Of a stretch of DNA of 64,000 nt, positions 1,056-32,563 are shown in pieces. Position 1 is the stretch's first letter, and every line of letters starts with the position of its first letter. Under the pieces are notes generated by a model. That model was given only the letters and a program-made list of their open reading frames with translations. It searched no databases and was not told where the DNA came from. The stretch lies in assembly GCA_905478415.1 (NCBI GenBank), contig CAJQIG010000002.1, positions 5,573 to 69,572 of the forward strand, in the 5' to 3' direction. Source of the DNA: an uncultured Patescibacteria group bacterium (GTDB lineage: Bacteria; Patescibacteriota; Microgenomatia; UBA1400; PJMF01). The position numbers and the translations under genes were made by a program.

Positions 1056-2963
1056 ATGTATAAGCTGTTTTTTGTGCCTTCTTTGGCACTCAGAAAGCCA
1101 ACACACATGATTAGCGCATCAACAGACACACCAGCCACACCAACAGAAAACCAACCAGTTATGGCAACTACGCCTGTTAATAACGCTCCAACCCCTCCTA
1201 GAGCACCTCAAAAGACTAGTAGTCTTCCTTTGAAAATGATTCTGGGAATTGCATTGTTACTTCTACTTGTTTTAGGAAGTGGCGTTGGACTCTATCTTTC
1301 ACAACAAAGTCAAAATATTCGTCCTCAAGCAGCAATAGCCTGTGGAAACATTACTTGTAAAGATGGCAGAACAGCAGGCTCTGACTGTAGTGCTCCTCAA
1401 TCTAGCTGTGAAAAACGCGCTGAAGAATTCTGTGGAGTTGGAAATGTTCAAAGTACTAGCTCTAACCCTTCTTCGTGTGATGGAGGTAGTTCTTCAAGCT
1501 GTGCATATCCATACTGCGATGCTACTTGCGGTGATACAAGTTGTTCAGTTTCTTGTCAATCAGGAACAAGCTGTACAACTGGTAAAAATACATTCGTTTG
1601 TAGCGGAAAAAGTGGTTCTGGTTGTAATGAAGCAATGGGCAGTTATCTTCCAGCTCTTTCAAATAACTCTGGTAGTGTTGGTACTATTACTGAAGAAAAA
1701 TGGTGTACGACTATTCAACTTGACGCTTGGGCTAAAAATTCAGGCGGCAGTGCACAAGAAACCGCTGCTCGAGTCGTCTATATTGGTGATAATGGAGCTG
1801 TTTGTGTTGAAGGCACTGGCTGTAACCCTGACGACTTAGACTGGGACTGTTCAAAAACTCCTCCTGCTGGAACCTACACTTCTGCTTGTTCCCCTGCTAC
1901 TCAAACAGTTGGTAACTTAAGCTATCAGCTTAAAATCACCGGTACGCAACCTAAAGATGTAGGAGAAGTTGTCTTTTTCCTTGGATTTTATGGTAAATAC
2001 TATAACAAAGAGCTTACAGATGGTTTCTTAGGCAAACCAACTTGGTCAGTGACTTCTTGTCAGGCAAGTGTTGAAGGACCTGATAAATGGTGTGGATACT
2101 GGTTGAAACAAGTAAGTGACCCAAATCGTACTGCTGGTGGAGACACTATTACTTGGACCTGGGATGGATCTTTCAAACAACCAGCTCTTGATAACAAAAC
2201 TATTAATGAAATTGCCACAAAAATTGCAGCCATGAAAGCTGCAGGCACATTAGCCGCAGACTATAAAGTCCCTGTTCACGTCGAGTACCGACTACCCGAT
2301 GGATCTAGATATTCAGAAATGGGCACCCAATTCTTAGATATTTCTCCATACGCTTGTGCTCCTAAACCAAGCCCAACGCCGACACCTACTCCTACGCCAA
2401 CCCCGACCCCTACTCCGACGCCTACCCCTACCCCAACGCCTACACCTACTCCAACCCCAGGAGTGACTCCAACGCCGACGCCGACACCTACCCCGACACC
2501 GACACCAACGCCAACGCCGACACCTACCCCAATTGGCCCAATGTGTATGTCTATCACAATGCAAACACCTGCTGGCCAGCCAGTCAGAACCCCTAATGTC
2601 GGAAATACGGTACAGTTTACATGTGGACAAGTTGCTGGTGTAACTGATTACCAATTCAGAGTCATCACTCCAAGCCTAGCAGCAGTCACTGTCGAATCAT
2701 CTGGAAACATCTCTGTCCCTTATACAATAGAGGAGTTTGGAAGATACTATGCTCAGTGCAGAATCTGTCCAACAACTGGAGATGGAGTCCTCTGCCAAGA
2801 TTGGGAACCAGTTCCGGTAGTGTTCGAAGACACAGTTCAACAGTTGGGTGCTCCTCCAAGATCAGAAGTTATGAGTCGCGAATCAGAAACAATTCAACCG
2901 GTCATTGATGAAATACCAGAGAGAACTCAGTCAGATCGCTCACTAGATGTAATGACAAGATAG
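1056..2963 (+). CDS. Membrane-anchored or secreted cysteine-rich surface protein with a long PT linker; paralogous to the N-terminal half of 4530-7040
   Basis: N-terminal hydrophobic helix [26 protein letters not shown] is near-identical to residues ~95-125 of the 4530-7040 product. A Cys-rich module ([23 protein letters not shown]...) and a ~55-residue (PT)n linker are present. No LPXTG at the C-terminus. Start is uncertain (an alternative ATG lies at ~1107). Confidence 0.6.
2366..2532 (+). repeat. Imperfect hexanucleotide (CCNACN)n repeat encoding a PT linker
   Basis: The run ccaacgccgacacctactcctacgccaaccccgacccctact... is directly visible. Its reverse complement generates the spurious GV-repeat ORF 2276-2557. 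Confidence 0.9.
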
Positions 2964-2985
2964 AAACTAACAACATAGTACAAAA

Positions 2986-4503
2986 ATGGAAACACAAAAC
3001 AACCAAACACCAGCATTCTATACAAAAACTCCAAATGAGAATTCTGGAGCAATGAATACTGGTACACCAAACCAGCCTCCTTCAAGAAAACCTATTACTA
3101 GGTCCAAATCGAAGTATGTCATGGCGATACTAGCTGTCTTCCTTTTTGTCATCGTTGGTGCTGCAGGAATTTTAATTTCCCAGCGACAGCGACAAGTTGC
3201 TGGCCCGGTAGCTCCAACAGCTCCAGAGTCAAAACCAAAAGCAGCTCGAGAAATCGAAGAAAGCTGTACGCTTGTCTTTGATGTTCCCGAACCAACTCCA
3301 ACACCAAGCCCAACCCCTACTCCAGTTCCTAGTGATAAAGCTAAATGTATTAGTAAAGAAACATACTACGCTGCTGAAGCTACTTCATCAGCAAGAGTAG
3401 TTGCTGATGCAGCTATGGTCGATCCAAAAGCCCCTCTTCCAGTGGGCACGGTACTTGAATACAGAATTACCGTTCGATCCCAAGGTACTACCACTGGTGA
3501 AGTCAATGTTATTGATACTTTGCCCGATGCAGTTGCATTTATCCCAGATGCAGATGCAAATACTCCAGATTGGATTGTTGATGACGAAGGTCGATTAACA
3601 ACAAACCTTGGAGTTCTAGAAGCAGGCGAACAGGTACTAAAAATAGTTGTCAGAGTAATTAAAGAATCTGCCGGCTTAAGTGGAACAGGTCTCACTTTCA
3701 AAAATCAGGTAGCTGTCACTACAGAACCAAGTACTACAACTGGCCGCGTTCACATGAGTGAGTGTGAAGTCACTAATGTTCTTCCAGAACCAACTCCTAG
3801 CCCAACGCCGACCCCTACTCCAACCCCCACACCGACGCCAACACCAACACCTACCCCTACGCCTGATGTAACTCCTACACCAACGCCAACCCCAACACCA
3901 GGAGTAACACCAACGCCTACGCCAGTCGTGTACTCATGTGGTAGCGTCTGTGAAACTGATGATCAGTGCCAGACTGGTAACGCAAGTCACTTCTGTAGTA
4001 ATGAGTTCGGCAACACTTGCAGACTCTACAGCAATCCATCAGATGCCAATTGTGAACCTGTGGTTGAAACCTATGCTTGTAACAGTACTTGCTCAACTGA
4101 TGAACAATGCTACACAGCCAATCCAAACTATGTCTGTAATGAAGGAGCCTGTCGCTTAGCTGAAAATACAGCTGCCACAAACTGTCTCCCCGTAGCCTAT
4201 GTTCCACCAGCTCCAGCTGTTGGCTGCAATGAAGTTTGTGAAACCAACGCTGACTGTAGCCAGGTTGACCATATCTGCTACACCACGGCTGACGGCACAA
4301 ACCGCTGTAGAACTGAAGAATACGTAAACAGCTCAACCTGTTCTGCTCCTCCTGCAACACAAACTGTCTATACAACTGTTGCTCAAGTACAGCCAGAATT
4401 ACCAGCTGAACTACCAAAGACAGGTGCATTCGACCTAGCTAACTGGCTCAAAGCAGGACTGGTCACACTTGGACTTGGAGCTGCACTCTTACTCTTGTTA
4501 TAA
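2986..4503 (+). CDS. LPXTG cell-wall-anchored surface protein with a DUF11-like repeat domain, PT linkers and three 6-Cys modules; paralogous to the C-terminal half of 4530-7040
   Basis: C-terminal LPKTG followed by a hydrophobic stretch ([26 protein letters not shown]) is a sortase sorting signal. An N-terminal TM helix is present. The segment [30 protein letters not shown] resembles a DUF11/conserved repeat domain. Three modules of the form C-x3-C-x5-C-x7-8-C-x6-8-C-x9-C are present. Confidence 0.7.
3787..3925 (+). repeat. PT-linker-encoding (CCNACN)n repeat
   Basis: The run ccaactcctagcccaacgccgacccctactccaacccccacaccgacgccaacaccaacacct is directly visible. Confidence 0.85.
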
Positions 4504-4529
4504 AAATAGTACTTTAGAGAAGTAGAACT

Positions 4530-7040
4530 ATGATCAACGCATCAGGCATCGGAACGAACACGACACCAACTCCTCAGGGAATTCCTCCAATGCCAGGTGT
4601 TAATGGTCCTACACCCCCCTCCTTCAATCTCAACCAAGCTAACATCCCCAAAGAAAAGGCTAAAGCTGAAATAGCCAAGCCCGTTTCACCAGTAGCAGGT
4701 CAGCCGGCAGGTGCTCCAGTAACTGGACCCAAATTTCCAGATGCTGCAAAAGCTCCTATAACCACTTCTAATAATGGTGGTAACTCGCACCGTAAGAGAA
4801 AAGGCTCATTGAAAATTATCATTGGGGCTATTCTTTTATTCATTCTCGTATTAGGTAGTGGCGTCGGGTTATATCTTTCACAACAGAGTCAAGATATCGC
4901 TCCTCAGGCTGCTATTGTTTGTGGAAGTATTACCTGTACTGATGGCCGTAGTGCTGGCTCGGACTGCAGTGCTCCTCAGGCTGACTGTCAGCAACGTGCT
5001 AGAGAATTTTGTGGCAGCGATGAACAAGTCGCAAGTAAAGGTACAAAACCAGAATGGTGTGGCGGTGGTGGTGATACTTGCGCAACTTCAGACTGTCGTG
5101 GAACCTGTAATAACAACCCTTCTTGTAGTTTAACTGGTAACTGCAGTAAATGCAGTGGAACTGAAAAAGGAACTAAAACCTTCTACTGTGAAGGTAAAAG
5201 TGGCTCTGGTTGTAACGATGCTATGGGTAGCTATATGCCAGAATTTTCAAATCAATCTGGAAGTCTTGGTACTATTACTAAGGAAAAATGGTGCACTACT
5301 GTTCAGCTAGACGCTTTTGGCCCCGCTGGAAGTGATGCTCGAGTCGTCTACATCGGTAATAATGGACAAGTCTGTGTCGAAGGTAAATGTGATGACTACA
5401 AGAATGCTGAATTTTGGAACTGTGATCCACCAGCTTCTCCAACTCCTCCAGCTGGAACCTACACTTCTGCTTGTGCTCCTGCTACTCAGACTGTTGGTAA
5501 CTTAAGTTACAACCTTAAGATTACCGGAACTCAACCAGCAGATCTTGGACCTGTAGTTTTCTTCCTCGGATTTTACGGTAAATACTATAATAAAGAATTA
5601 ACTGATGGTTTTCTAGGTAAACCAACCTGGTCTGATACCTGCCAAGCAGGTATTGAAGGCGAAAGTAAATGGTGTGGATATTGGCTAAAACAAGTCAGTG
5701 ATCCAAACCCTGCTGCTGGTGGTGACACTATCTCCTGGACATGGGATGGCACCCATAAACAACCAGCCATTGACAACAAAACCATCAACGAAATTGCCAC
5801 AAAAATTGCAGCTATGAAAGCTGCAGGCACATTAGCCGCAGACTATAAAGTCCCTGTTCATGTCGAGTACCGACTACCTGATGGAACAAAATACAAAGGC
5901 ATGGGTACCCAATTCTTAGATATCACTCCTAGTGCTTGTGCTCCCGAGCCAAGCCCAACACCTAAGGCTGACCCCAGTCCTACGCCACTGGTCACACCAA
6001 CACCTACTCCGACACCAAGTCCAACGCCAACCCCTACCCCAGAGCCTGGTACCGCAGCTTGTGTGTGGAAACGTGCCTACACCAGTTACCGTGGTGACAC
6101 TGATGCGGCCCGATTGACTGTGGCTGACACCATTAATCCCGGAGATGAGTTTTTCTATCGAACTCGAATCACAGCTAGTACAACAGGTGTCATTGGTGCT
6201 GTTTCTCTCTTAGATGTACTACCAACTGGTATCACCTATGTGCCTGACGCACATAACACAACTGGAATTGAGTATAATGAGGCCGACAACTCTATTTCAA
6301 TGAGTTATGACACTCTTACTGACTACAAAGTCGTCAATTTCAAAGTTATGGTTAACGAGGATGTCGCAGATCAGACTACTATTGCTAACACAGCAATAAT
6401 CACCAATAGTAATAAAGCTTTGGAAGTCAGTGAATGTTCGACCGACATACTTATCTCAGATATTCCTCCAGAACCAACATACGAATGTAACTCACCATGT
6501 AGTGATGACTCCCAATGTCAGACAGCAAACGCCGAATACACTTGTAGTGTTGAAGATGGCAATGTCTGCCGACTCGACAGCAATAGAGCAGATGATATGT
6601 GTCAACCAAAGCCACTCACCTATTCTTGTAACTCTAGTTGTGAAACTGACACCGAATGTCAGACAGCGAATGAGAACTACATTTGTCAACCAGACGAGAA
6701 ACTCTGTCGCTTAGTTAGTAATCCGGACGAATCTAACTGTACAAATCCAGTAGCACCTTCCCCATCTCCAGCAATTGGCTGTAATGAAGAATGTTCTACA
6801 AACGCTGACTGTTCAAACAGTAACCACATCTGCTACACGACACCTGAAGGAACTAACCTCTGCAGATTAGAGAGCTACCTCAACAGCTCAAGTTGTACTG
6901 AACCAGTCGTACAAACAATCGTTGTGCAACCAGAGCTTCCACCGGAGCTACCTCAAACTGGCCCAACTAACTGGCTCAACTGGATCAAGACTGGATTCGT
7001 AACTCTGGGAGTTGGAGCAATCTTACTACTACTACTTTAA
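4530..7040 (+). CDS. Large LPXTG-anchored modular surface protein (836 aa); its architecture equals 1056-2963 plus 2986-4503 fused
   Basis: Pro-rich N-terminus, a TM helix, a Cys-rich module homologous to the 1056 product (MGSYMPEFSNQSGSLGTITKEKWCTTVQLDAF), a PT linker, a DUF11-like domain, three 6-Cys modules, then LPQTG plus a hydrophobic tail. Confidence 0.7.
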   Translation: MINASGIGTNTTPTPQGIPPMPGVNGPTPPSFNLNQANIPKEKAKAEIAKPVSPVAGQPAGAPVTGPKFPDAAKAPITTSNNGGNSHRKRKGSLKIIIGAILLFILVLGSGVGLYLSQQSQDIAPQAAIVCGSITCTDGRSAGSDCSAPQADCQQRAREFCGSDEQVASKGTKPEWCGGGGDTCATSDCRGTCNNNPSCSLTGNCSKCSGTEKGTKTFYCEGKSGSGCNDAMGSYMPEFSNQSGSLGTITKEKWCTTVQLDAFGPAGSDARVVYIGNNGQVCVEGKCDDYKNAEFWNCDPPASPTPPAGTYTSACAPATQTVGNLSYNLKITGTQPADLGPVVFFLGFYGKYYNKELTDGFLGKPTWSDTCQAGIEGESKWCGYWLKQVSDPNPAAGGDTISWTWDGTHKQPAIDNKTINEIATKIAAMKAAGTLAADYKVPVHVEYRLPDGTKYKGMGTQFLDITPSACAPEPSPTPKADPSPTPLVTPTPTPTPSPTPTPTPEPGTAACVWKRAYTSYRGDTDAARLTVADTINPGDEFFYRTRITASTTGVIGAVSLLDVLPTGITYVPDAHNTTGIEYNEADNSISMSYDTLTDYKVVNFKVMVNEDVADQTTIANTAIITNSNKALEVSECSTDILISDIPPEPTYECNSPCSDDSQCQTANAEYTCSVEDGNVCRLDSNRADDMCQPKPLTYSCNSSCETDTECQTANENYICQPDEKLCRLVSNPDESNCTNPVAPSPSPAIGCNEECSTNADCSNSNHICYTTPEGTNLCRLESYLNSSSCTEPVVQTIVVQPELPPELPQTGPTNWLNWIKTGFVTLGVGAILLLLL

Positions 7041-9760: not shown

Positions 9761-9766
9761 ACAGTG

Positions 9767-9839
9767 TGAGCCGAGAGGGACTTGAACCCCCGACCAGTAA
9801 GGTATAAGCTTACCGCTCTACCAGCTGAGCTATCGGCTC
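9767..9839 (-). tRNA. tRNA with anticodon UAU (Ile, decoding AUA)
   Basis: Hand-folded cloverleaf on the minus strand: acceptor GAGCCGA/TCGGCTC; U8; D-arm GCTC-AGCTGGTA-GAGC; anticodon stem GTAAG/CTTAC with loop C-U-UAU-A-C; variable loop TGGTC; T-arm GGGGG-TTCAAGT-CCCTC; discriminator A. No encoded CCA. Confidence 0.75.
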
Positions 9840-9896: not shown

Positions 9897-10958
9897 GTGG
9901 TATACTACCCTGGTATGAAAAAGAAATTCACCTCCTTATTTACTACTCTAAAGGAACGATGGAAACTTACAATTTTTGTCTTGTTACTTCTCGTAGGTGG
10001 AGCATTCTTTTTCTTTAAACAAAGTGCTGCCAGTGAAGTTGAGCAAACGTTTATCACCCCAGAAAAAGGAAATATTACTGAGTCTATCGAACTCTCCGGA
10101 ACAGTAGATGCCAAAGAGCGAGCCCGCCTCAGATTTATTGCTGGTGGAAAGCTTACCTATCTGGGTGCTCAAGAAGGAGACCAGGTCAAAAAATGGCAAA
10201 CACTTGCAACTATCGATCAAGCTAGTTTACAAAAACAACTTGAACAAAACTTAAATCTCTACATGAAAGAACGCTGGGACTGGGAGCAAACACAAGATAA
10301 CATTGATGGCAACTACTTGGGAGAAGACGATGCCAGTCGCCGAACGATCGATAAAGAACAGTTTGACCTTAACAACACTGTTCTGACCGTAGAAATTCAA
10401 GATATTGCTATCAAAAATACCCGGTTGACTGCCCCATTTGAGGGTATCTTGGTAACATCACCTGCATCAGTAACTGGAGTCCAGTTGTTAGCTACTGATT
10501 ACTTCGAAATTGTGAACCCTGACTCAATTATCTTCAGAGCCTATGTTGATGAAGAAGATGTAGCTAAAATTCAACTCAACCAAATGAGCAATATTACTCT
10601 TGATGCTTTCGACAACGAAATTATAGATAGCACAGTGAACTATATAGCATATACCGCTCTCCAAAGCTCTGAGGGAACGGTATTTATTGTTGAATTCCCC
10701 CTAGAATACAGTGAAACAAGCCTGCCACTGAGAATTGGCATGAATGGAGATGTGCAAGTTGTCCTGAACCAAAAAGAAGACGTCATGACCATTCCAATTA
10801 TAGCTACCATTCAACGTGATGATCGCACCTATGTCCAAGTCAAAGCAGAAAATGGAACTCTTGAAGAGCGTGAAATTGAAATTGGCTTAGAGTCAGAAGA
10901 TTCGGTCGAAATTATTTCAGGACTTACCGAAAGTGACCAAGTCTTACTGCCAGAATAA
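9897..10958 (+). CDS. Efflux transporter periplasmic adaptor (HlyD/MacA family membrane fusion protein)
   Basis: N-terminal TM helix, coiled-coil middle region and a beta-barrel-like C-terminus. It immediately precedes the ABC ATPase and permease. Probable true start at MKKKF (~9915). Confidence 0.6.
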   Translation: MVYYPGMKKKFTSLFTTLKERWKLTIFVLLLLVGGAFFFFKQSAASEVEQTFITPEKGNITESIELSGTVDAKERARLRFIAGGKLTYLGAQEGDQVKKWQTLATIDQASLQKQLEQNLNLYMKERWDWEQTQDNIDGNYLGEDDASRRTIDKEQFDLNNTVLTVEIQDIAIKNTRLTAPFEGILVTSPASVTGVQLLATDYFEIVNPDSIIFRAYVDEEDVAKIQLNQMSNITLDAFDNEIIDSTVNYIAYTALQSSEGTVFIVEFPLEYSETSLPLRIGMNGDVQVVLNQKEDVMTIPIIATIQRDDRTYVQVKAENGTLEEREIEIGLESEDSVEIISGLTESDQVLLPE

Positions 10959-10963
10959 CGCGT

Positions 10964-11683
10964 ATGCTACTCCGCTTAACTACCGTCTCAAAACACTACA
11001 AGCTCGGTGGCACAGTCATTCGAGCCCTCGATAAAGTCACTGTTGATATTGACAGTGGTGAGTTTGTGGCCATCATGGGACCTTCTGGAAGTGGAAAATC
11101 AACCTTTCTCCAGGTAGCAAGCATGCTGGCACAACCCAGTGATGGAACTATCTTTCTGAAAGGAATTGATGTCACTGAGTATAATGAAATTGAGAGTGCG
11201 AAACTTCGAAATAAAGAAATTGGTTTCGTCTTTCAACAGTTTAATCTGCTCGCTAAAACAACAGCTCTTGATAATGTAAAACTACCCCTTGTCTATGGCC
11301 AGGTATCTGATCGAGAACAAAACAGACGTGCCAAAGAAATGCTTGATCGAGTTGGGCTCTCTGATCGAATGAACAACACCTCTGCTCAACTTTCTGGTGG
11401 CCAGCAACAACGAGTAGCCATAGCTCGAGCGCTGGTAAATGAACCAGCAGTCATTTTTGCTGACGAACCAACCGGAAACCTCGATACTAAAAGTGGTGAA
11501 GAAATCATGAAACTCTTGGTCAACCTTCACAAAGAAGGTAAAACCATTATTATGGTCACCCATGAAGAAGAAATTGCCGCCTTTGCTGACCGACTAATTA
11601 TGTTCAGAGATGGAAACATCCTTTCTGATACAAAAAAACGAAAAACAAAGAAAAAAACTTCTAAGAAGAAAGGCAAAAAATAA
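10964..11683 (+). CDS. ABC transporter ATP-binding protein (MacB/LolD-like)
   Basis: Walker [13 protein letters not shown] signature [15 protein letters not shown] and Walker [12 protein letters not shown]. Confidence 0.9.
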
Positions 11684-12894
11684 TGGGAAATGCCTTTAAA
11701 CTTGCCATCAAAGCTATCTGGATCAACAAAACTCGCTCATTTTTGACTACGCTTGGCGTTATTATTGGTGTTGGCTCAGTCGTGCTCCTCACCTCAATTG
11801 GAACTGGCCTTTCTGCCTTTGTCCAAGAACAATTCGACGCACTTGGTGCTAATACCGTTATTGTCTACCCAGGTGATATCTTTGGAGAAGATGGTGGATT
11901 TAGTCAAGAAGCACAACTCAGTGCGCTTTCTAACTCAAAATTAAAAATGAGTGACGTACAAGAACTAAGACGATTGCGAGAGTTCCTTGACATTGTAGTA
12001 CCAATGAACACCAGGCAGGAAACACTTTCATACCGAGGTTCATCAAGAAAAGTAAGCATTGTAGGTACCACACACGAATTCATCATTGCAAAAGCAAATA
12101 TTTTGCCAGAAACAGGCCGTTTTTTTACTAAAGAAGAGTCTGAAGGTGCCAAGAAAGTTATTGTCTTAGGACCAACTATTAAAGAAGACCTCTTCGGTAA
12201 TATCGATCCAATTGGCAAAAAAATGAGAGTTGGTTCAACCACCTACCGAGTTATCGGTGTAATGGAGGAAGCTGGAGGCGGTGGTTTTGGAGGCCCTTCA
12301 TTTGATACCTATGCATATATTCCTATCGAAACTTCTTTCAAACAGTTTGATAACAAGACTATTATCGAAATTATCACTAAAACAAAAAGTACTGATAATA
12401 TTCCAGAATCCATCGCAGCTATCGAGAAAACCATGTTAAAGAAATTCAAAGAAGATGAGTTTTCTGTTGTCGAACAATCTGATATTTTAGAAACAATTCA
12501 AGAAATTCTCGGAGTCCTTACACTTGGCCTCGGTGGTATCTCCAGTATTTCTCTAGTTGTCGGCGGTATTGGCATCATGAACATCATGCTTGTTTCAGTC
12601 ACCGAGCGCACCAAAGAAATAGGCCTCAGAAAAGCCCTCGGTGCTACCCCAAATGTGATTATGTTACAGTTTTTAATCGAGTCTGCACTGCTTTCAATCC
12701 TTGGTGGAACAATTGGTATCATCATTGCTCTTTTTGGAACTTGGGGACTACAATCCTTTTTTCCAGCCAAAGTCACCTTGGATGCTATTTTGCTCGCGTT
12801 CGGCGTTTCAACTGCCGTCGGCCTTATTTTCGGCGTGGCTCCAGCTCGACGAGCTGCTGGCCTTTCACCAATCGAAGCGCTTCGCTACGAGTAA
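11683..12894 (+). CDS. ABC transporter permease, MacB/FtsX family
   Basis: N-terminus [34 protein letters not shown] is typical of MacB-type permeases. A large periplasmic loop and a C-terminal FtsX-like 3-TM bundle are present. Start overlaps the ATPase stop. Confidence 0.85.
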   Translation: MGNAFKLAIKAIWINKTRSFLTTLGVIIGVGSVVLLTSIGTGLSAFVQEQFDALGANTVIVYPGDIFGEDGGFSQEAQLSALSNSKLKMSDVQELRRLREFLDIVVPMNTRQETLSYRGSSRKVSIVGTTHEFIIAKANILPETGRFFTKEESEGAKKVIVLGPTIKEDLFGNIDPIGKKMRVGSTTYRVIGVMEEAGGGGFGGPSFDTYAYIPIETSFKQFDNKTIIEIITKTKSTDNIPESIAAIEKTMLKKFKEDEFSVVEQSDILETIQEILGVLTLGLGGISSISLVVGGIGIMNIMLVSVTERTKEIGLRKALGATPNVIMLQFLIESALLSILGGTIGIIIALFGTWGLQSFFPAKVTLDAILLAFGVSTAVGLIFGVAPARRAAGLSPIEALRYE

Positions 12895-12940
12895 GTATCA
12901 CCTTCTCTACCTCAATATACTTTAATGCTATACTGATCTC

Positions 12941-13333
12941 ATGGGAAAGATAAAAACACTTTTTGGCACACTTGGATTACTGGGAGTTGTGGTAGTTGGA
13001 GGCTATTTCTACTCCAAGAACTCCAACTCATTACTGGCAAAAAAAATAGCTCCGCTTGTCGAAATAGTTGCTCCTACCATCGAAAAAGCCCCCTCACTTG
13101 CACAAGAAATAAAACTCCCAGAAGATGGCCTAGCAGAGGTCAGTACCCTCACAGAGCGTGGCAAAGAACTGACAGAGCATGTGGGAACCGTACTTGGAGA
13201 AAGTGTGGCTGAAGTTGACGCTGAAAAACAACCGCTACATGAAAGAGCCATTGAATATGGACAGTACTTATACTGTAAGGGAATTGTTGAGGAGTACGAG
13301 AGGACTCAACAAATCAAGACCACAGAAAACTAG
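12941..13333 (+). CDS. Small N-terminally membrane-anchored hypothetical protein (intact copy of a duplicated gene)
   Basis: MGKIKTLFGTLGLLGVVVVGGYFY is the anchor. The remainder is acidic and helical. A near-identical DNA copy occurs 817 bp downstream. Confidence 0.5.
   Translation: MGKIKTLFGTLGLLGVVVVGGYFYSKNSNSLLAKKIAPLVEIVAPTIEKAPSLAQEIKLPEDGLAEVSTLTERGKELTEHVGTVLGESVAEVDAEKQPLHERAIEYGQYLYCKGIVEEYERTQQIKTTEN
12957..13301 (+). repeat. Direct repeat copy 1 (345 bp, ~97% identical to 13774-14118)
   Basis: Manual base-by-base comparison; constant offset of 817 bp; about ten mismatches. Confidence 0.9.
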
Positions 13334-13731
13334 TTTTCAACAACTTGTTGTGCTCTGGAAATATGCATTTTTACGATAAAAGCATTAGGGCTAGTAGTAT
13401 CTGTTTCCAAAAAGTATCTAATTTGCCAACCACCCGCCGTTACTTTAAGATCAGTATCTCTTTCAAAAAAATCTCCTTCAGGTATATGAAACATTGTATT
13501 TAGTCCGTTAAATATTCCACCCAAAGAATCGCGTGCTTGCTCCCAAATTGATCGCACATCAGATTCTGAATGAAGATCGTTTTCTAGCAGTGCTTGAAGA
13601 GGAATCGCTATCATTTTCCCTCTTACTTCTAGTTGTTGTTGAGTTAATTCTTTTACTTGAGTTAATTCTTTTTGAGTTGGTACTTTTATATTAAACATTC
13701 GATCAGCAAAAGATGAATATGATTCTCCCAT
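13330..13731 (-). CDS. Hypothetical protein encoded between the two direct-repeat copies
   Basis: 133-aa ORF on the opposite strand in an AT-rich spacer. It has an internal KELTQ duplication and no recognisable motif. Confidence 0.4.
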   Translation of the reverse strand: MGESYSSFADRMFNIKVPTQKELTQVKELTQQQLEVRGKMIAIPLQALLENDLHSESDVRSIWEQARDSLGGIFNGLNTMFHIPEGDFFERDTDLKVTAGGWQIRYFLETDTTSPNAFIVKMHISRAQQVVEN

Positions 13732-13773
13732 AGCTTAGTTCCTTTTTACTTTTTGTCCATGATGGCATCATAG

Positions 13774-14118
13774 CACTTTTTGGCACACTTGGATTACTGG
13801 GAGTTGTGGTAGTTGGAGGCTATTTCTATTCCAAGAACTCCAACTCATTACTGGCAAAAAAAATAGCTCCGCTTGTCGAAATAGTTGCTCCTACCATCGA
13901 AAAAGCCCCCTCACTTGCACAAGAAATAAAACTCCCAGAAGATGGCCTAGCAGAGGTCAGTACCCTCACAGAGCGTGGCAAAGAACTCACTGAACATGTG
14001 GGAACCGTACTTGGAGAAAGTGTGGCTGAAGTCGACGCTGAAAAACAACCCCTGCACGAAAGAGCTATGGAATATGGACAGTACTTATACTGTAAGGGAA
14101 TTGTTGAGGAGTACGAGA
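13774..14118 (+). repeat. Direct repeat copy 2
   Basis: See copy 1. Confidence 0.9.
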
Positions 14119-14144
14119 CAACTAATTCAAAAATAGCAGACTAA
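13806..14144 (+). pseudogene. 5'-truncated duplicate of the 12941-13333 gene (lacks the N-terminal anchor; in-frame TAG upstream)
   Basis: The sequence upstream reads atgatggcatcaTAG. The ORF can only start at an internal GTG. The C-terminus diverges from the first copy (TTNSKIAD vs RTQQIKTTEN). Confidence 0.45.
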
Positions 14145-14149
14145 AAGAA

Positions 14150-17100
14150 CTAATCCCCTTCCCTAATATATCCATATTGGGCTTGCACAATCGGCTGATC
14201 AACCATCTTTGAGAGAAGAGGCTGCATCTCACGCAAGGTTTTTACTGAATCTATTGTCTTCAAGGTATTCTTGTCATACCAAAATGCATACACAAACCCC
14301 TTGATATCCATATAAATAATTTTATTTTCATTAGAAACTAACTCTTTATACATACCAAAGTCTTTAGTCCATTCAACTGACATCGTTTTCAAAAGTCTAC
14401 CTAGTAAAATTGGACCCGTTTTTTTCATCGTGAATCCCTCACTCTGTGAATACGCCGATCTTAAAAAATCTCTAACTTCCAATGGTATTTCTTCATTTTG
14501 AGATAACTCATCTATTATTTCAGTAGTCTTCATGTTAAAAACTCTTGACTGAAGCGTCAATAAGGTGAAAGAGGTGCTAGTTCCATTTTGCTCTATTTGT
14601 TTTTGCTTATCTTTACAGAGCATACTCAGTTCTTTTAAGTCATCTAATGCATTCATTTCATCAGAATTATCATTCTTTTTATACCACTCAAAAAAATCAC
14701 TAATCGAGTGATCTCCACTGGCTTCCCAATCTAAGAACATTTCTAAATTTACATTTTTAAGATTAACCCTTACTTTATCTTTATCGAAAAAATAACCACT
14801 ATTATGTTGCAAACCAACTACAATATTAAGTAAAAAGACCTGTTGACCAATGTCATCTAAAACTCCATCTGCCCACATTTTTTCTCCAAATTCTGCAATA
14901 TTCCCCCAGGAAGCCCCTCCCCATGGATCGTCTTGATCAAAACCTCTTGGGTCAATGAATTTCCCCTTTACTTGATGAAACATTACTCTGATTTCCTCTT
15001 CTGTTCCCTCTTGGTATAGTAAGCGGTTACTTCTTGGAGAAGCAGAAATAGCAAACTTGTCTTGTGCATGTTTAATTTCAGAATTAACTGCAAATACCAT
15101 ATACTCACGCACTTTTTTGAACAATGAAGTTATTTCATTATTTACTCTTTGTCCAAGTTTTTCGTTCAGTTCTAAAGTGGTTTTGTAGTTCTGTCTCAAT
15201 AAGACTAGGATATAATATCTGAAAATTTCTTTAAAACAATTGATCTCACGATAGGGCTCTCGTTCAATTTTTTCTTGTGGAGCAACCTCATTGCTAAGAT
15301 ATGTCTCAATTGAAATAAACTCATCACTTTTGTGTGGGAAAAGTTTTTTACCTAAAGCACACAGGCTTTTTACTGTCTCAAAATTTTTCGCAAATACTTC
15401 TTCTTTTATTTGTGACTTTAGCCATGAGTACTCACCTTCTCCATCTTGTAGTTCGATTTGGAACTCACTAATAAAAAAACAGAGCGTATCATATTCTTTA
15501 TTTTTGACGCAATCAATTAAAAACTGATTTTGCGTGTCAAGTTCTAGACTTCTGAAATCGTCTGCTACTGATGATCTATCAATATCTTTGAAGAGTGAAA
15601 AGTGTGTTAACATAACATCCGGATATACAGAAATGAACTTGTTCAAATACTTCATTTTTGCAGTAGGATCTAGGTACTTAAAATAGTACATTATATCAAC
15701 ATCAAAATAACTATTTGAACTTAGGATTGTTTCAGCTAGCTTCTTCTTATCCACTTGATGAAATGTTTCAGAATATTTTCTTATAATTTCAAACTGTGAC
15801 GCTTCTAAAAACCTTTCTCCTAAACGTTTAAAATCAATATTGGAATGCATAATTACATCCATATGAGAGGATAAAGGGTAGTTCAGCTCGCAGTTCCAAA
15901 ATTCATCAATAATCATGTTGTGGTGATCAGATAAATTGCTCCAGTATCTGAATACTTCATTATGAAATTCAGTATGAATCGTGGCTACTAGAACTTTTTT
16001 CAATTGATCTTGAGAAAGCTTTTCACTCCATTCTAGGAAGCAGTAAATCAATTTATCTTCCCCCATAGACTCTAACAACATGGTGATGTTTGCATTTGGA
16101 AAGTGTGACAATTTTTTTACTACAAAACCCTGGTAATTGTATTTAAGACAAAGTCTCATGAGTACATCTGGATCAATTTCTTTCAGATAGCCCCAAACCT
16201 TATATAAATGATCAACGCTAATTTGATTTCCTTCCATAGCTTTTTCAAGTACATCGAGCACATTAATACTGCTCTCAGTTTTCGATAAACATCGAATTAA
16301 AGAACCAAATTTTTTCTTTGCCAATAGTAGTTCAATAAACTTATCAGTATCGTATGATTCAAAATAATCAATGTATGTGAATACATCATGCCCATGGCCA
16401 GAGTCAACTATCTTTTCAAGTAACAACTCAGCTCTAATCTGCTTAAAAAAATCAAAGTTTTCAAATAGATAGTAAATACGGTAATTCTCAATAAAAGCTT
16501 CTGCAATAACTGTTCTATTACAACTTGAAAAATAATCTAATTCATCACTCAGTAGCCTCATATTTCCATTATCAATTAGTTTCTGAAGGATTAGATCTCG
16601 ATCAGCGTCAGGAAAACTTGATTCTGCTGCAATAAGAGACTCAACACAAGAATTTTTTAATGCATCCTGTTCTATCATCGCTAACTCTGCGGTAGAAAAT
16701 GAAAAGTCCTTAATCCTAGAAATTAAATATTCGATATTTCCTGTTTTTATAGCCATTTTTAATAGCCATGATTGATCTAGATCTTTAAAATATTGAGTGT
16801 TCTGAAAAACATATACACCTTTATTTTCAGCAAACATTGCCTTTGCTAGCTGCTTCATATCTATGTTTGACGTTCTTGCACTTTTAATCATTTCAGTACA
16901 AGAACGATAATTAAAAATAGATCTTGATAAGGACCTCATTTCATCGTAAGTTAATTCTTTTTTTAGTTCAAAAAATTGAGATAAAGCTTCACTTCCCCAT
17001 ACAGTATCTAAAACAAAATGGTTAGATTCAGCGTCAATAGGAAGAATACTATTAACTAATATATCCATACCTTGTTTTTTTAACTTAAGCACTAACTCTA

Positions 17101-17350
17101 AAAACCAAACTGGTTGTGAAAGTGATGTTTTTTCTTCTTTTATTTGAATAAATTTTTGAACAATTTCATCAGTGCTACTACTCAAAATAACTTCTCTGTA
17201 TCCCGCTAGGATCTCTTCTTTACCAGTATTTTTTCGTTCTGAAACTGAATCTTTTATTTCTTCATCTTTGGAATTGACTAAAAACAATTTAGAGATCACT
17301 TGTCTTCTTCTTGTCAACTCATGATTTTGTTTAATAATATGTTCATTCAT
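14150..17350 (-). CDS. Large (1066 aa) AT-rich orphan protein, co-oriented 9 bp downstream of the VirB4-like ATPase
   Basis: Uninterrupted ORF rich in K/E/D/F/Y. No TM segment and no recognisable catalytic motif. It looks visibly more AT-rich than its neighbours. Confidence 0.55.
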   Translation of the reverse strand: MNEHIIKQNHELTRRRQVISKLFLVNSKDEEIKDSVSERKNTGKEEILAGYREVILSSSTDEIVQKFIQIKEEKTSLSQPVWFLELVLKLKKQGMDILVNSILPIDAESNHFVLDTVWGSEALSQFFELKKELTYDEMRSLSRSIFNYRSCTEMIKSARTSNIDMKQLAKAMFAENKGVYVFQNTQYFKDLDQSWLLKMAIKTGNIEYLISRIKDFSFSTAELAMIEQDALKNSCVESLIAAESSFPDADRDLILQKLIDNGNMRLLSDELDYFSSCNRTVIAEAFIENYRIYYLFENFDFFKQIRAELLLEKIVDSGHGHDVFTYIDYFESYDTDKFIELLLAKKKFGSLIRCLSKTESSINVLDVLEKAMEGNQISVDHLYKVWGYLKEIDPDVLMRLCLKYNYQGFVVKKLSHFPNANITMLLESMGEDKLIYCFLEWSEKLSQDQLKKVLVATIHTEFHNEVFRYWSNLSDHHNMIIDEFWNCELNYPLSSHMDVIMHSNIDFKRLGERFLEASQFEIIRKYSETFHQVDKKKLAETILSSNSYFDVDIMYYFKYLDPTAKMKYLNKFISVYPDVMLTHFSLFKDIDRSSVADDFRSLELDTQNQFLIDCVKNKEYDTLCFFISEFQIELQDGEGEYSWLKSQIKEEVFAKNFETVKSLCALGKKLFPHKSDEFISIETYLSNEVAPQEKIEREPYREINCFKEIFRYYILVLLRQNYKTTLELNEKLGQRVNNEITSLFKKVREYMVFAVNSEIKHAQDKFAISASPRSNRLLYQEGTEEEIRVMFHQVKGKFIDPRGFDQDDPWGGASWGNIAEFGEKMWADGVLDDIGQQVFLLNIVVGLQHNSGYFFDKDKVRVNLKNVNLEMFLDWEASGDHSISDFFEWYKKNDNSDEMNALDDLKELSMLCKDKQKQIEQNGTSTSFTLLTLQSRVFNMKTTEIIDELSQNEEIPLEVRDFLRSAYSQSEGFTMKKTGPILLGRLLKTMSVEWTKDFGMYKELVSNENKIIYMDIKGFVYAFWYDKNTLKTIDSVKTLREMQPLLSKMVDQPIVQAQYGYIREGD

Positions 17351-17359
17351 AATAATAAA

Positions 17360-19711
17360 TTACAAATTCGACCGACTCGTAATCTCAGCCTGCACCACAT
17401 CCACATCTTTTCCATACTTGAGCCGAGATAACTGTTTAATCATATCTGCCTGTTTTGGGTTCATACGAGCTTCAATAGCAGCCATATCTTTCATCAATGA
17501 CATACTAAATGGCGGCACTGGCTCATTCTTTACGATTGTCTTTACATAGACATGATACTTTTCGATGTTTGTGAGATCTCCTTCGTTAAAAGTTGGCGCA
17601 AACTCATGCTGCAAAAAGTTTGCATCAGGAACACCGACGCGGAACGAAACCATAGTACCAACGTTACCAAAAACAGCATTCTTAACTTCTTCGTCAATCT
17701 GACTGACAAACTGATTGGCCACAATCAAGTTGAGACGATACTTGCGAGCCTCTGAAAGAATGACCGCAAAATCTTCGGTAGCATAATTCTGGAACTCATC
17801 AACATACAGGAAGAAGTCTTTACGATCGTGCATCGGAATGTCCTGACGAGACATAGCAGCAGTCAGTACTTTTGGAACTAAAATCAGTCCCAAAAACTTA
17901 GCGTCTTCCTCTCCTAGTACACCTTTTGAAAGGTTGCAGAGAATAATTTTTTGTTCATCCATAGCTTTACGAAAATTAAACGAACTTTCTGGCTGACCAA
18001 TAATATTACGCATGGTTTTGTTAGTCACAAACCGACCAAACTTAGAAACAATGTAATCCAAAACTTCGGACTTGTGGAAGTCAGAGGTTTGAGCCATCTG
18101 ATCAGTCCAGTACCGACGCACCACTGGATCTTTTACAAGCGGTAGCATTTCGTCAATATACTTTTGATCGGTTAAAATACGCACCAACTCAATAAAAGTA
18201 GTGCCTTTTTTGTACATAATAGTCAACATAGCATTACGAATAGCGTGCTCAAACCGAGGACCAATGATACCAGTGCGGTGCGGGTCATACAGTTTATACA
18301 TCAAACCAATAATTGATCCCACCACAAAGTGACGTTGCTCTTCGCTATCCGCCTCCATCATATTCAGACCCATTGGACGACTAAGGTCAGAAGGGTTGAA
18401 GTAAATGACATCGTCGGCACGTTCTGGAGGCATGAGTTGTAAGATATCTTCGATAAATTCTCCATGTGGGTCGACAGCACAAACACCATTGCCATTTTCA
18501 ATATCCTGCAGGATCATTTCTTTCAAAAACTCTGACTTACCAGTACCAGTCTTTCCAATAATGTACATATGCCGTCTACGGTCATCATCACCAATGTATA
18601 CTTCTCTCGATTCTCCTCTGTACTGAGACTTACCCAGTCTGAGTCCCTTGGTTGGAATATTGTGAGGAGCCGGAGCATGTTTAGCGTTCAGCCATCTGAT
18701 AAAGTGAGTTTCGATCATTTTACTTGGCAGATGGAACATGGTAGCTAATTCTTCGGAATTAAGAATCATTGTGTTCCGATTAAAAAGAGGCATGTAGCGA
18801 TACAAAAAGTCGATCATGAACAAGTGTTTCAAAAATACTCGTCCTTTTTTAATATTATTGTAGGCACTGCTGAATTGAGCAAAAGCTCCCAAAATGTTAT
18901 TAATGTGAGAGTCAGCAGAGTTTTCATCTGGAGAAGAAACAACAACTCTCAGAGCCACTGTGAAACCTACTTTTTCTGCTTTTGTGGTAATCGCCTCCAT
19001 CTCTTTTGGATCATGGTTGTACGAAGCTTTTTCTGGATCTGCTTCACGCTTTTTCTGCTTCTGTACGTACGATCGACCTTGATCCTGCCATTTTTTTGAT
19101 GCTGGCTGGAGCAAGATCTGCACAACAGCTCCTTCTCCTGGGCCCATCTTTGCAAGCGCAGAAGTAATCAACGATAATCCATCAGTTGGTAAATCTTTAT
19201 ATGGTTTCAGCGGTAAGTACTTGGCACGATCAAACGTCAGCGAAGCAAATGAAACTTTTCCTTTTTCACTGAAAATATTTATTTCGTCAACTTCCTTGAT
19301 ATCTGCGTTTGGATAAGCACCATGAACCTGCTTTTCGACGAAATCTCTAATTCCTCTGGAACAACTAACGTAAAAAGCAATTTCTTCTTTAAGTGCCACA
19401 ATCTCAAACGAGATAATATCGTCCGTCTTTAAAAAGGAAGTAACTCCCCTGCTTTTAAGCGCATAGAGGGCTGCAAACATTTGTTCGGCAGCATCAATTT
19501 TCGTTTCATTGTCTTTTGGTACTCTAATCATGAGCGTTACAAAGCTCAGCGCATACTTTTCACGATTACGATGCTTAAACCACTGCAGACCCATGTAGGC
19601 AAACACTCCAAGAATGATCCATAGAAAGAGCATGGCAAACAGCGCAGCTGTCACCGCTATGAGTTGTTGTAAAACTGTATTTGGATCCATTGCGTTTCCT
19701 CTAAAAGACAA
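17360..19711 (-). CDS. Type IV secretion ATPase, VirB4/TrbE/CagE-like (FtsK-HerA superfamily); a VirD4-type coupling protein is less likely
   Basis: N-terminal TM helix. Walker A IIGKTGTGKSEF sits at ~residue 385 of 783, which is VirB4-like placement. A VDPHGEF motif and Walker B FFLYVDEFQNYAT are present. Confidence 0.6.
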   Translation of the reverse strand: MSFRGNAMDPNTVLQQLIAVTAALFAMLFLWIILGVFAYMGLQWFKHRNREKYALSFVTLMIRVPKDNETKIDAAEQMFAALYALKSRGVTSFLKTDDIISFEIVALKEEIAFYVSCSRGIRDFVEKQVHGAYPNADIKEVDEINIFSEKGKVSFASLTFDRAKYLPLKPYKDLPTDGLSLITSALAKMGPGEGAVVQILLQPASKKWQDQGRSYVQKQKKREADPEKASYNHDPKEMEAITTKAEKVGFTVALRVVVSSPDENSADSHINNILGAFAQFSSAYNNIKKGRVFLKHLFMIDFLYRYMPLFNRNTMILNSEELATMFHLPSKMIETHFIRWLNAKHAPAPHNIPTKGLRLGKSQYRGESREVYIGDDDRRRHMYIIGKTGTGKSEFLKEMILQDIENGNGVCAVDPHGEFIEDILQLMPPERADDVIYFNPSDLSRPMGLNMMEADSEEQRHFVVGSIIGLMYKLYDPHRTGIIGPRFEHAIRNAMLTIMYKKGTTFIELVRILTDQKYIDEMLPLVKDPVVRRYWTDQMAQTSDFHKSEVLDYIVSKFGRFVTNKTMRNIIGQPESSFNFRKAMDEQKIILCNLSKGVLGEEDAKFLGLILVPKVLTAAMSRQDIPMHDRKDFFLYVDEFQNYATEDFAVILSEARKYRLNLIVANQFVSQIDEEVKNAVFGNVGTMVSFRVGVPDANFLQHEFAPTFNEGDLTNIEKYHVYVKTIVKNEPVPPFSMSLMKDMAAIEARMNPKQADMIKQLSRLKYGKDVDVVQAEITSRSNL

Positions 19712-31304: not shown

Positions 31305-31319
31305 ATATTGTCTAGTCTA

Positions 31320-32411: not shown

Positions 32412-32503
32412 GGGTCCTGCTGCTTTTAATGCCAGAAAGATAACTATTGATCTACTAAGGAGTAGTCACATTGTAGCTTAATTTTTGCATTTTGTGCAGG
32501 GAA

Positions 32504-32558
32504 AAATGTAAATAAATGTAGATAAAATGTAGATAAATGTAGATAAATGTAGATAAAT
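32504..32558. repeat. Tandem ~10-bp repeat (aaatgtagat) x5 in the Fic upstream region
   Basis: aaatgtaaataaatgtagataaaatgtagataaatgtagataaatgtagataaattg lies between the stop of the 32564-34000 gene and the Fic start. The period is about 10 bp (one helical turn). Confidence 0.85.
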
Positions 32559-32563
32559 TGAAG

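Follow-up and report, generated by a model that had tools for sequence, protein, structure and literature searches.

Prophage e14 of Escherichia coli provides a described case in which an insertion divides its target gene, as icd/icdC consists of a hybrid gene and a displaced C-terminal pseudogene whose synonymous differences are exposed upon excision (PMC13626634). For the e14/icd hybrid that remains after loss of the insert, the same paper cites Hill et al. 1989. By its layout, e14 in icd appears to be the closest analogue of the locus described here, in which a small membrane-protein gene is followed by an insert and a second, 5'-truncated copy. Flanking target repeats, a hybrid gene and a displaced fragment were all found. 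As with e14 (and phage 21), the functional gene runs into the insert, which supplies a replacement 3' part, and the resident 3' part ends up beyond the insert, without a promoter. The repeats again differ mainly by synonymous changes, and loss of the insert leaves a recognisable hybrid. However, e14 is 15 kb long and carries its own site-specific integrase, which acts at a short core, whereas the insert here is 472 bp long and holds a single ORFan (ORF133), with neither a tyrosine nor a serine recombinase of its own and no recombinase nearby. The repeat here also covers codons 6-120 of 130 and not the 3' end alone, and recombination between the copies would need the host homologous machinery.

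In Campbell-type insertion-duplication mutagenesis of naturally transformable bacteria, circular DNA with an internal gene fragment integrates through a single crossover. The products are similar to our locus, as the repeats equal the homologous fragment in length and enclose the insert, the 5' end stays with one copy and the 3' end with the other, and reversion occurs spontaneously by recombination between the repeats. Here too, direct repeats bracket the insert, the upstream copy has the promoter and 5' end, and the downstream copy has the resident 3' end. The difference is that this would have happened naturally, in an uncultivated bacterium of the Patescibacteria (Woesebacteria/Pacebacteria-like), where the circular intermediate has to be presumed and corresponds to no known vector or replicon. 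In addition, the incoming fragment would have carried a coding 3' end, which leaves copy 1 functional instead of disrupted.

In the orphan modules of Rhs and CdiA loci, a full-length gene and a small gene precede a 5'-truncated copy whose C-terminus differs. This order, together with a conserved region shared by both copies, is also observed here, but the tails are 8-10 residues long without a toxin domain, the gene encodes a 130-aa pump-associated membrane protein, and the small gene lies on the opposite strand without a match to an immunity family. Homology-facilitated illegitimate recombination usually deletes the recipient DNA between its anchor and its joint. In natural transformation, homology at one end serves as the anchor while the other end is joined illegitimately, as outlined in PMC3240628 and PMC3410848. 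The homologous left side (the diverged patch described below) resembles such products, as does the right junction at 13773|13774, which is abrupt and without clear microhomology. Here, however, the joint is located 5' of its anchor and gives a 345-bp duplication, which would need a sister-chromosome or a circular intermediate.

The repeat, its two gene copies and the insert

A total of 335 out of 345 positions (97.1%) were found to be identical in the ungapped alignment of copy 1 (12957-13301, plus strand) with copy 2 (13774-14118, plus strand), which confirms the direct repeat of the original prediction with an offset of 817 bp. This pair is the sole long near-identical repeat in the window, i.e., the whole 64-kb stretch of DNA that was analysed. 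Copy 1 lies, as had also been proposed, within an intact gene with an N-terminal anchor. The gene (12941-13333, plus strand) encodes a single-pass membrane protein of 130 aa with a K-rich N-terminus and a hydrophobic transmembrane segment at about residues 6-24, and it is supported by its open reading frame, the family alignment and the codon score (+0.29 in frame, negative in the other five frames). The family alignment contains 29 invariant columns and a conserved stretch reading ...QPLHERAxEYGQYxYCKGIVEEYE. No Pfam family was found for this protein, and its AF2 model from 16 sequences is all-helical and of low confidence (pLDDT 59; no fold search was made from it).

An extended -10 promoter element, TGCTATACT (12926-12934, plus strand), is predicted upstream of copy 1. 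The motif TGnTATACT ends about 6-7 nt 5' of the ATG and is kept at equal distance in the window and in L013, L018 and L032; TATAAT-like boxes were also observed 6-9 nt upstream of the ATG at many genes of the window. We infer from this conservation that the motif functions as a promoter, and its placement suggests a leaderless transcript.

Copy 2 starts at codon 6 of the gene, where it has neither the conserved TGnTATACT nor an ATG. Its reading frame (13734-14144, plus strand), identified from the ORF list and the family alignment, is open for 136 codons downstream of an in-frame TAG at 13731-13733. An in-frame TAG had been placed just upstream of the copy; the stop exists at this more distant position, whereas the TAG directly next to the repeat, at 13771-13773, belongs to another frame. 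The claim that only an internal GTG could serve as a start holds, since no ATG, GTG or TTG was found between 13734 and the GTG at 13806, and initiation at this GTG would delete most of the transmembrane helix. Copy 2, with neither promoter nor start codon, is most likely silent. The tandem ATG codons at 13759-13764 were considered as a former start and rejected, as they are shifted by one base relative to the frame of copy 2 and would give an N-terminus without the family-conserved lysines. The copy is thus 5'-truncated, and its end is divergent as predicted; following ...EEYE, copy 1 has a new tail of ten codons, RTQQIKTTEN, and copy 2 has TTNSKIAD.

The segment between the copies (13302-13773) is unique in the window. 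It had been described as a 450-bp AT-rich spacer, of which the composition stands (GC 35%) and the length is corrected to 472 bp, made up of 28 bp, ORF133 and 42 bp. The predicted minus-strand ORF of 133 aa was found at 13330-13731. The insert is foreign by composition, with a GC3 of 0.18 for ORF133 compared to 0.35-0.39 for host genes, while ORF133 itself is coding-like; its codon score is +0.31 in its own frame, the same as the average over 34 reference genes, and negative in all other frames. Together with an AAGGA ribosome-binding site 8-9 nt 5' of the ATG, these features indicate that ORF133 is probably a real gene. A perfect 14-bp palindrome, GAAAACTAGTTTTC (13325-13338), was read directly from the sequence and contains both convergent stops, the TAG of copy 1 at 13331-13333 and the minus-strand TAG of ORF133 at 13330-13332. 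In blastn, the spacer matches itself in reverse.

No Pfam, PHROG or NCBIfam match was found for ORF133, and the best PADLOC hits were Cas fragments (E-value 0.012, 13.6 bits), which are not credible. A word-indexed search of 5.8 billion proteins returned only ORF133 itself. The exhaustive HMMER search of 1.84 billion representative proteins returned the query and two multi-repeat proteins, which were rejected as their scores are sums of weak repeat matches. A single-sequence AF2 model has a pLDDT of 57, with no Foldseek match in the PDB below E = 0.09. IMG/VR contained no relatives of ORF133, the window encodes no paralogue of it, and it does not resemble the neighbouring 1066-aa protein. The search for toxin or immunity homologs proposed earlier thus gave no toxin, immunity or defence homology, and an anti-phage defence or toxin-antitoxin gene is not supported by any credible PADLOC, Pfam or Foldseek match.

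The original prediction also considered a cassette or mini-island, which is not borne out in any classical form. The ends of the insert carry no terminal inverted repeats, and a scan of the ORFs between 52 and 35910 gave no integrase, transposase or recombinase domains. No attC was found, the 28 bp after the ORF133 stop having no imperfect inverted-repeat structure. Rfam gave no family over 12000-15000, and terminator prediction gave none. A 19-nt partial inverted match (12926-12944 with 13757-13775) was rejected as a chance occurrence, since 57 such pairs occur in 1.3 kb. An integron gene cassette was rejected since there is neither an attC-like structure nor an integrase, and an insertion sequence or MITE was rejected on the lack of inverted repeats, transposase and any other copy in the window, and on the 345-bp length of the duplication.

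Synonymous mosaic and alleles across assemblies

All ten mismatches between the copies occur at third codon positions, nine of them being synonymous and one exchanging I for M, an outcome with a chance of (1/3)^10 = 1.7e-5. Nine of the ten fall within an 82-bp patch (13171-13252 in copy 1, plus strand; clustering P = 2.5e-4 by simulation), so that the differences along the repeat amount to one in 214 bp, nine in 82 bp and none in the last 49 bp. Clustered mismatches restricted to third positions point to an imported allele and not to decay in place. The high identity that had been taken as a sign of recency stands as a figure, but the 3% divergence appears to be a mosaic patch of synonymous differences from another allele instead of uniform recent decay. 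The patch is best explained as sequence of the donor allele that runs on into the insert. The nine-site synonymous cluster lies 49 bp from the insert, which supports an insertion-duplication, and in every assembly each set of patch alleles occurs only together with its own tail. Outgroup codons could not polarise the nine sites because synonymous positions are saturated at 50-60% protein identity. The I/M residue of the patch was observed to vary freely across the small-protein family.

The two-copy form was found, essentially identical, in at least 12 independent metagenome assemblies, with contigs from SPAdes-style, MEGAHIT-style, METAG-scaffold, Logan and JGI sources. This recurrence also supports an insertion-duplication and makes an assembly artefact, which the original prediction had asked to be excluded, unlikely. 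All contigs found to bear ORF133 share one genomic context. A scan of JGI metagenomes gave one further contig only, which contains the left part of the filled allele.

The empty site was also found. A single-copy allele (P0001) encodes 128 aa and combines the 5' end of copy 1 with the nine patch alleles and the tail of copy 2. It occurs on 2-3 contigs, among them L001 and L002 from short-read assemblies of samples ERR4352503 and SAMN08776802, whose left (723 bp) and right (1051 bp) flanks match the window without a single mismatch. This provides the single-copy allele of the same population that a Campbell-type event entails, at the level of short-read assembly, and its hybrid structure is what one crossover inside 12957-13170 predicts. 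The crossover can be placed only somewhere within this interval, in which no specific att core motif is identifiable. Four more distant lineages have the pump operon, one small gene and the convergent ATPase, without ORF133 or the 1066-aa gene. As contigs without the insert also exist, the locus represents an insertion/deletion difference between strains.

Short-read assemblers cannot phase the 55-bp and 158-bp identical blocks within the 214-bp near-identical stretch, and the C/T site at 13012/13829 is called (C,T), (C,C) or (T,T) depending on the assembly. One contig of 872 bp (L031) has a 55-bp terminal overlap that closes an 817-bp circular path, which could equally be a cycle in a de Bruijn graph. 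Short-read assemblies break at the 345-bp repeat or thread it wrongly, so that long reads are needed for calling alleles here.

Origin of the two-copy form

We consider it somewhat more probable than not that the locus is a strain-level structural difference formed by insertion-duplication, through homologous recombination within the small gene. The 472-bp foreign segment with ORF133 would have been joined to the small gene by homologous recombination inside the gene, with the topology of a single Campbell-type crossover with circular or circularised DNA that carried an internal allelic fragment of the gene together with ORF133. Sister chromosomes joined illegitimately through a homology anchor would lead to the same arrangement. 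No integrase would be involved in either route. Three products would follow. The first is an intact, promoter-bearing hybrid copy 1, with its last third and new tail coming from the incoming DNA. The second is ORF133, which converges on copy 1 and shares its orientation with the minus-strand operon of the ATPase and 1066-aa genes, from which it may be transcribed. The third is the displaced copy 2, which would retain the resident 3' alleles and tail without a promoter or start codon. Host homologous recombination between the 345-bp repeats could reverse the event by deleting the 817-bp unit, leaving the 128-aa hybrid gene.

An insertion or duplication that regenerates its target gene had been anticipated, and it is supported by the single-copy allele and by the single-copy relatives. 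The nine patch sites fit a reciprocal distribution of donor and resident alleles, while the sole 5' marker (13012/13829) is placed inconsistently between assemblies. Several observations count against the insertion-duplication. The donor haplotype, which is one gene with the copy 1 tail followed by ORF133 without copy 2, was not found among the contigs; the 817-bp circle is implausible as a free replicon; and the path of the single-copy contigs could also be produced by a mis-threaded assembly graph. Furthermore, the first 214 bp of the repeat contain at most one difference although a simple diverged donor should differ there, which implies that the donor allele was itself a mosaic or that gene conversion occurred later.

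The reverse order of events is less probable. Here the two-copy form would be the older state in this species. A foreign island would have arrived earlier, bringing in ORF133 and a homologous copy of the gene along with the 1066-aa gene; gene conversion would then have kept the copies similar, and the single-copy form would have arisen by deletion between the repeats. The two-copy form is by far the more common one (16-19 contigs versus 2-3), the 1066-aa gene beside copy 2 is likewise foreign and low in GC, and the patchy identity of the copies is of the kind that partial gene conversion leaves. Deletion between 345-bp direct repeats is also easy and yields exactly the observed hybrid, so that a two-copy ancestor losing the unit would give an identical single-copy allele and the present data fit either direction. 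On the other hand, an initial insertion-duplication of the same topology is still required and the relatives are single-copy. A silent copy 2, which has no start codon or promoter and whose ATGs at 13759 and 13762 are out of frame, should moreover diverge at all codon positions, whereas its 9-10 changes are all at the third.

If the insertion-duplication is correct, ORF133 would therefore be a presence/absence polymorphism in the population, and the locus a clear natural case of a lineage-specific ORFan being gained and lost through nothing but homologous recombination, with no mobile-element machinery and with the conserved target gene retained, in a Patescibacteria bacterium that is uncultivated and has a reduced genome. 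It would remain an ordinary but well-documented insertion/deletion difference that opens no new class of system. A further extension, in which the 817-bp unit is a minimal mobile cassette without an integrase that spreads among naturally competent Patescibacteria as a circle via host RecA, is in our judgement unlikely. In such a cassette, the host-gene fragment would be an attachment handle that always restores its target and makes integration costless to the host, with the circular-path contig L031 and the coexisting filled and single-copy alleles as its footprints.

That the duplication is an assembly artefact is very improbable. The true state would then be a single-copy chromosome, perhaps with a small molecule or a collapsed allele of a second strain. 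Coverage is low (about 2-5x, from contig names), many contigs end at the repeat, and the single-copy path plus the 817-bp cycle of L031 is an alternative resolution of the same graph. Against this, over ten assemblies, made independently in different studies and with several pipelines, join within one contig the N-terminal context to the patch and tail of copy 1, and the junction to the patch and tail of copy 2, whereas the reverse linkage occurs in no long contig. The junction 13773|13774 is a novel adjacency in all two-copy assemblies, and the pipelines of L002 and L030 break at an unresolved repeat, yet L002 reads through.

We give just as little weight to copy 2 being a functional silent cassette or expressed paralogue, with programmed switching of tail or patch, as in pilS/pilE or orphan Rhs/CDI modules, and ORF133 as an immunity-like partner. 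The succession of a full gene, a small gene and a 5'-truncated copy with another C-terminus resembles orphan-module arrays, and the frame of copy 2 is open for its 136 codons with synonymous differences. However, allelic import accounts for this synonymous pattern, the variable tails of just 8-10 residues are domain-free, and the patch alters a single residue that is freely variable in the family. There is also only one extra copy, and no such array was found in any relative. A polymorphic toxin orphan module was rejected on the same short tails, on the opposite strand of ORF133, which has no toxin, immunity or defence homology, and on the lack of family matches.

A miniature autonomous mobile element (IS, MITE or integron cassette) with target duplication is hardly credible in spite of the compact single-gene unit between direct repeats, as a 345-bp duplication exceeds the length that any transposase produces by one to two orders of magnitude, the repeats differ by an allelic patch and are not a fresh duplication, the ORF133 contigs all have the same context with no second copy in the window, and inverted repeats, an attC-like structure and transposase or integrase domains are lacking.

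Neighbouring genes

The large gene downstream of copy 2 (14150-17350, minus strand) encodes a 1066-aa ORFan protein and is also low in GC (32%, GC3 0.27). It accompanies the filled as well as the single-copy allele and is absent from the relatives, in which a conserved structured intergenic element occupies its site. No Pfam, PHROG, PADLOC or NCBIfam family and no IMG/VR relatives were found for the protein, its sole homolog being a 612-aa fragment (P0022) that is 100% identical. With ORF133 and this gene, the downstream end of the small gene would be an accumulation site of foreign low-GC genes in this lineage.

The outer neighbours are conserved. A membrane ATPase of the DUF8128/DUF87/TrwB type (17360-19711, minus strand), identified by its domain matches, is the convergent neighbour of the small gene in relatives. 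Upstream, a MacAB-like pump operon (9897-12894, plus strand) consists of a membrane-fusion protein (9897-10958; Pfam HlyD_D23/HlyD_3), an ABC ATPase (10964-11683; ABC_tran) and a MacB/FtsX permease (11683-12894; MacB_PCD+FtsX), and these three pump genes precede the small gene in all the relatives examined.

Anatomy of the repeat and pattern of its mismatches

The two copies (12957-13301 and 13774-14118) form an ungapped direct repeat with 335 of 345 positions identical and an offset of 817 bp, and this pair is the only long near-identical repeat within the 64-kb window. Copy 1 is held in an intact 130-aa ORF (12941-13333). Copy 2 begins at codon 6 of this gene and has neither a -10 box nor an ATG of its own; its frame carries an in-frame TAG at 13731-13733, is open from 13734 and contains no ATG, GTG or TTG upstream of the GTG at 13806, and an ATG ATG at 13759-13764 is out of frame by one base. 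Beyond the common ...EEYE codons the tails are unrelated (RTQQIKTTEN in copy 1, TTNSKIAD in copy 2). The copies are separated by a 472-bp spacer with a GC content of 35%, within which ORF133 (133 aa) occupies 13330-13731 on the minus strand, and a palindrome, GAAAACTAGTTTTC (13325-13338), is common to the stop codons of ORF133 and copy 1. The original prediction of a near-identical repeat enclosing an opposite-strand ORF was thus confirmed, the spacer being slightly longer than first given and the in-frame TAG a different one.

ORF133 is probably a real gene: its codon score equals the mean of 34 reference genes in its own frame (+0.31) and is negative in the other five frames, and it is preceded by an AAGGA ribosome-binding site. 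Its composition is foreign, with a GC3 of 0.18 compared to 0.35-0.39 in host genes. Searches of family, protein, structure and viral databases detected no homolog and no fold match. As ORF133 lies in the same orientation as the ATPase/1066-aa operon, with no predicted terminator in between, it could be expressed by read-through from that operon.

All ten mismatches between the copies were found at third codon positions of the gene's frame (P = 1.7e-5). Nine of them are synonymous, and the remaining one is an I/M exchange at a residue that varies between I, M, V and L across the family. Nine mismatches fall within 82 bp (13171-13252; clustering P = 2.5e-4 by simulation), and the repeat shows at most one difference over its first 214 bp and none over its last 49 bp. 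The identity over these 49 bp is partly explained by synonymous sites that are unusually conserved in distant relatives too. A silent fragment decaying in place was rejected since its signature is not matched by third-position, clustered differences. Judged from their pattern, the differences would have arisen between two functional alleles in separate genomes which were later joined by recombination.

Two-copy and single-copy alleles in other assemblies

The two-copy (filled) form recurs with at least 99.9% identity in contigs of many samples and several assembly styles, namely SOLA22-1 scaffolds, SPAdes-style NODE contigs, a MEGAHIT-style k141 contig, Logan contigs and a JGI contig. In all of these, the copy 1 allele of the 82-bp stretch (patch 1) occurs together with tail 1 behind the N-terminal context, and the corresponding copy 2 allele (patch 2) together with tail 2 behind the junction context.

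An empty site, which had been proposed as the check on an insertion, was found in contigs encoding P0001, a 128-aa hybrid protein that joins the copy 1 N-terminus to the copy 2 patch and tail. P0001 occurs on L001 (Logan, ERR4352503), L002 (KRUG19-2, SAMN08776802) and one further contig. In L001 and L002 the pump permease gene is followed by a single small gene and then directly by the 1066-aa gene, and the flanking sequence agrees with the window without a mismatch for 723 bp to the left and 1051 bp to the right. A contig with the left portion of the filled allele (L030) comes from another sample of the KRUG19-2 study, so that both forms appear to co-occur in one environment.

The identical blocks of the repeat (55 and 158 bp) are at least as long as the k-mers of most assemblers. 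An 872-bp scaffold (L031; ENA SOLA22-1 SAMEA7060519 scaffold_491351) has a 55-bp terminal direct overlap that gives an 817-bp circular path in the order junction, core with all copy 1 alleles, tail 1 and ORF133. This scaffold may be an excised circle, the unit of a tandem array or a mere cycle in the de Bruijn assembly graph, and the single-copy contigs are the complementary path of the same graph. We consider the single-copy allele, known from short-read contigs, to be probably real because these contigs cross both branch points unbroken, at places where assemblies from these pipelines are otherwise interrupted (L029, L030), and because they were obtained from two different pipelines and samples.

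In four more distant lineages (L013/14, L015-17, L018-20 and L032), one small gene is followed directly by a convergent DUF8128/DUF87/TrwB ATPase gene, and both ORF133 and the 1066-aa gene are absent. By this comparison a single copy is ancestral at depth, and the two low-GC genes are lineage-specific additions at this spot.

Recombination model and comparison with known systems

A single homologous crossover within the first 214 bp of the repeat separates the filled from the single-copy allele, a relation that corresponds in topology to a Campbell-type insertion-duplication. The incoming DNA would have consisted of part of an allelic gene, running from an internal point to the 3' end with patch 1 and tail 1, followed by ORF133 and a further 42 bp. 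Its recombination within the small gene would have generated the functional hybrid copy 1 and left ORF133 as cargo, with copy 2 displaced without promoter or start codon while retaining the resident 3' alleles. With only 49 bp between the foreign patch and the foreign insert, both could have arrived together in one uninterrupted stretch of about 600 bp (13171-13773). Searches in and near the locus turned up neither an integrase or transposase nor terminal inverted repeats, an attC site or an RNA family, and we therefore credit the change to the host's own homologous recombination, which may have followed the uptake of DNA.

In the opposite direction, recombination between the repeats could delete the 817-bp unit and would yield exactly the 128-aa allele; insertion and secondary deletion therefore both fit the data. 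A donor that was a simple diverged allele should differ in the first 214 bp, yet it does not, which requires either that the donor allele was itself mosaic or that gene conversion followed. The sole marker in the 5' part, a C/T site at 13012/13829, is called (C,T), (C,C) or (T,T) depending on the assembly and hence cannot be phased, so that the reciprocal alleles of the Campbell model are not readable there. This variation reflects either segregating gene conversion between the copies or the collapse of a bubble by assemblers. The earlier reading of an insertion or duplication event is supported in substance, with the single-copy allele present in the population: the feature is real and is best read as a strain-level insertion-duplication that brought an ORFan gene and preserved its target gene.

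The closest analogue is the e14 prophage in E. coli icd. In that system the functional gene continues into the prophage, icdC, a displaced C-terminal fragment, marks the prophage's other end, and the gene left after excision is a hybrid recognisable by synonymous changes (PMC13626634). The present locus has the same geometry but lacks an integrase, carries a 30 times smaller cargo and has a repeat that spans nearly the whole gene. Its mode of action resembles insertion-duplication as done in the laboratory, or homology-facilitated illegitimate recombination. The locus is a further example of an event type already known and no new system. An IS (no transposase or terminal inverted repeats), an integron cassette (no attC or integrase) and a polymorphic-toxin orphan module (tails of only 8-10 residues, ORF133 on the opposite strand and without a family match) were rejected.

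The small gene and its surroundings

Upstream of copy 1 lies a MacAB-like operon encoding a membrane-fusion protein, an ABC ATPase and a MacB/FtsX permease. The 130-aa protein is a member of a small family that lacks a Pfam entry and was found only in Woesebacteria/Pacebacteria-type Patescibacteria (48-62% identity). Its members combine an N-terminus rich in lysine with one TM helix and share an invariant motif in the C-terminal part, QPLHERAxEYGQYxYCKGIVEEYE. Since the small gene lies directly 3' of the pump operon in every relative examined, its product may reasonably be regarded as a candidate accessory protein of the pump. A tRNA-Ile gene with anticodon TAT (UAU) is located just upstream of the operon (9766-9839, minus strand), and a tRNA is likewise found there in relatives.

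A TGnTATACT extended -10 box (12926-12934 in the window) ends 6 nt before the ATG of the small gene, at the same distance in the window and three other lineages. TATAAT-like or TGnTATACT boxes also occur 6-9 nt before the ATG of many window genes, for example 26629-27738, 34825-35910 and 58697-60310, and a Shine-Dalgarno-like motif was observed in just 16 of 43 genes. Boxes so close to the ATG suggest leaderless transcription, both of the small gene and more widely in this organism.

The 1066-aa gene (14150-17350, minus strand), a low-GC (32%) ORFan, lies between the small gene and the ATPase gene; its protein has no family and no homolog except an identical 612-aa fragment of part of it. The gene is found in both filled and single-copy alleles and is missing from all relatives, and it appears to be a second, probably earlier, foreign-gene gain at the same spot. 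It stands in the place of a conserved structured spacer of 126-141 nt that in relatives separates the small gene from the convergent ATPase gene (L013 8394-8535, L015 8367-8508, L018 5797-5953 and L032 6370-6511) and is gone from the window. The spacer has a closing stem of about 22 bp, the 3' strand of which overlaps the end of the ATPase gene, and an invariant core including a UUCC-GAAA-GGAA hairpin. RNAalifold predicts 43 pairs, 11 with compensatory changes, and no Rfam family matches. Candidate identities for the element are an RNA not yet described, a terminator acting in both directions or a target for recombination.

Elsewhere in the window, three large plus-strand ORFs (1056-7040) probably encode surface proteins. 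Each of them contains Pro/Thr-rich tandem repeats (12-18 nt), a weak DUF11 match is present in one, and the first and third are paralogous, with 72-82% identical blocks about 3.58 kb apart. Genes for an ATP-dependent DNA ligase, a Fic-domain protein and a Schlafen/AlbA_2 + HATPase_c_4 protein adjoin each other on the minus strand at 29532-34000.
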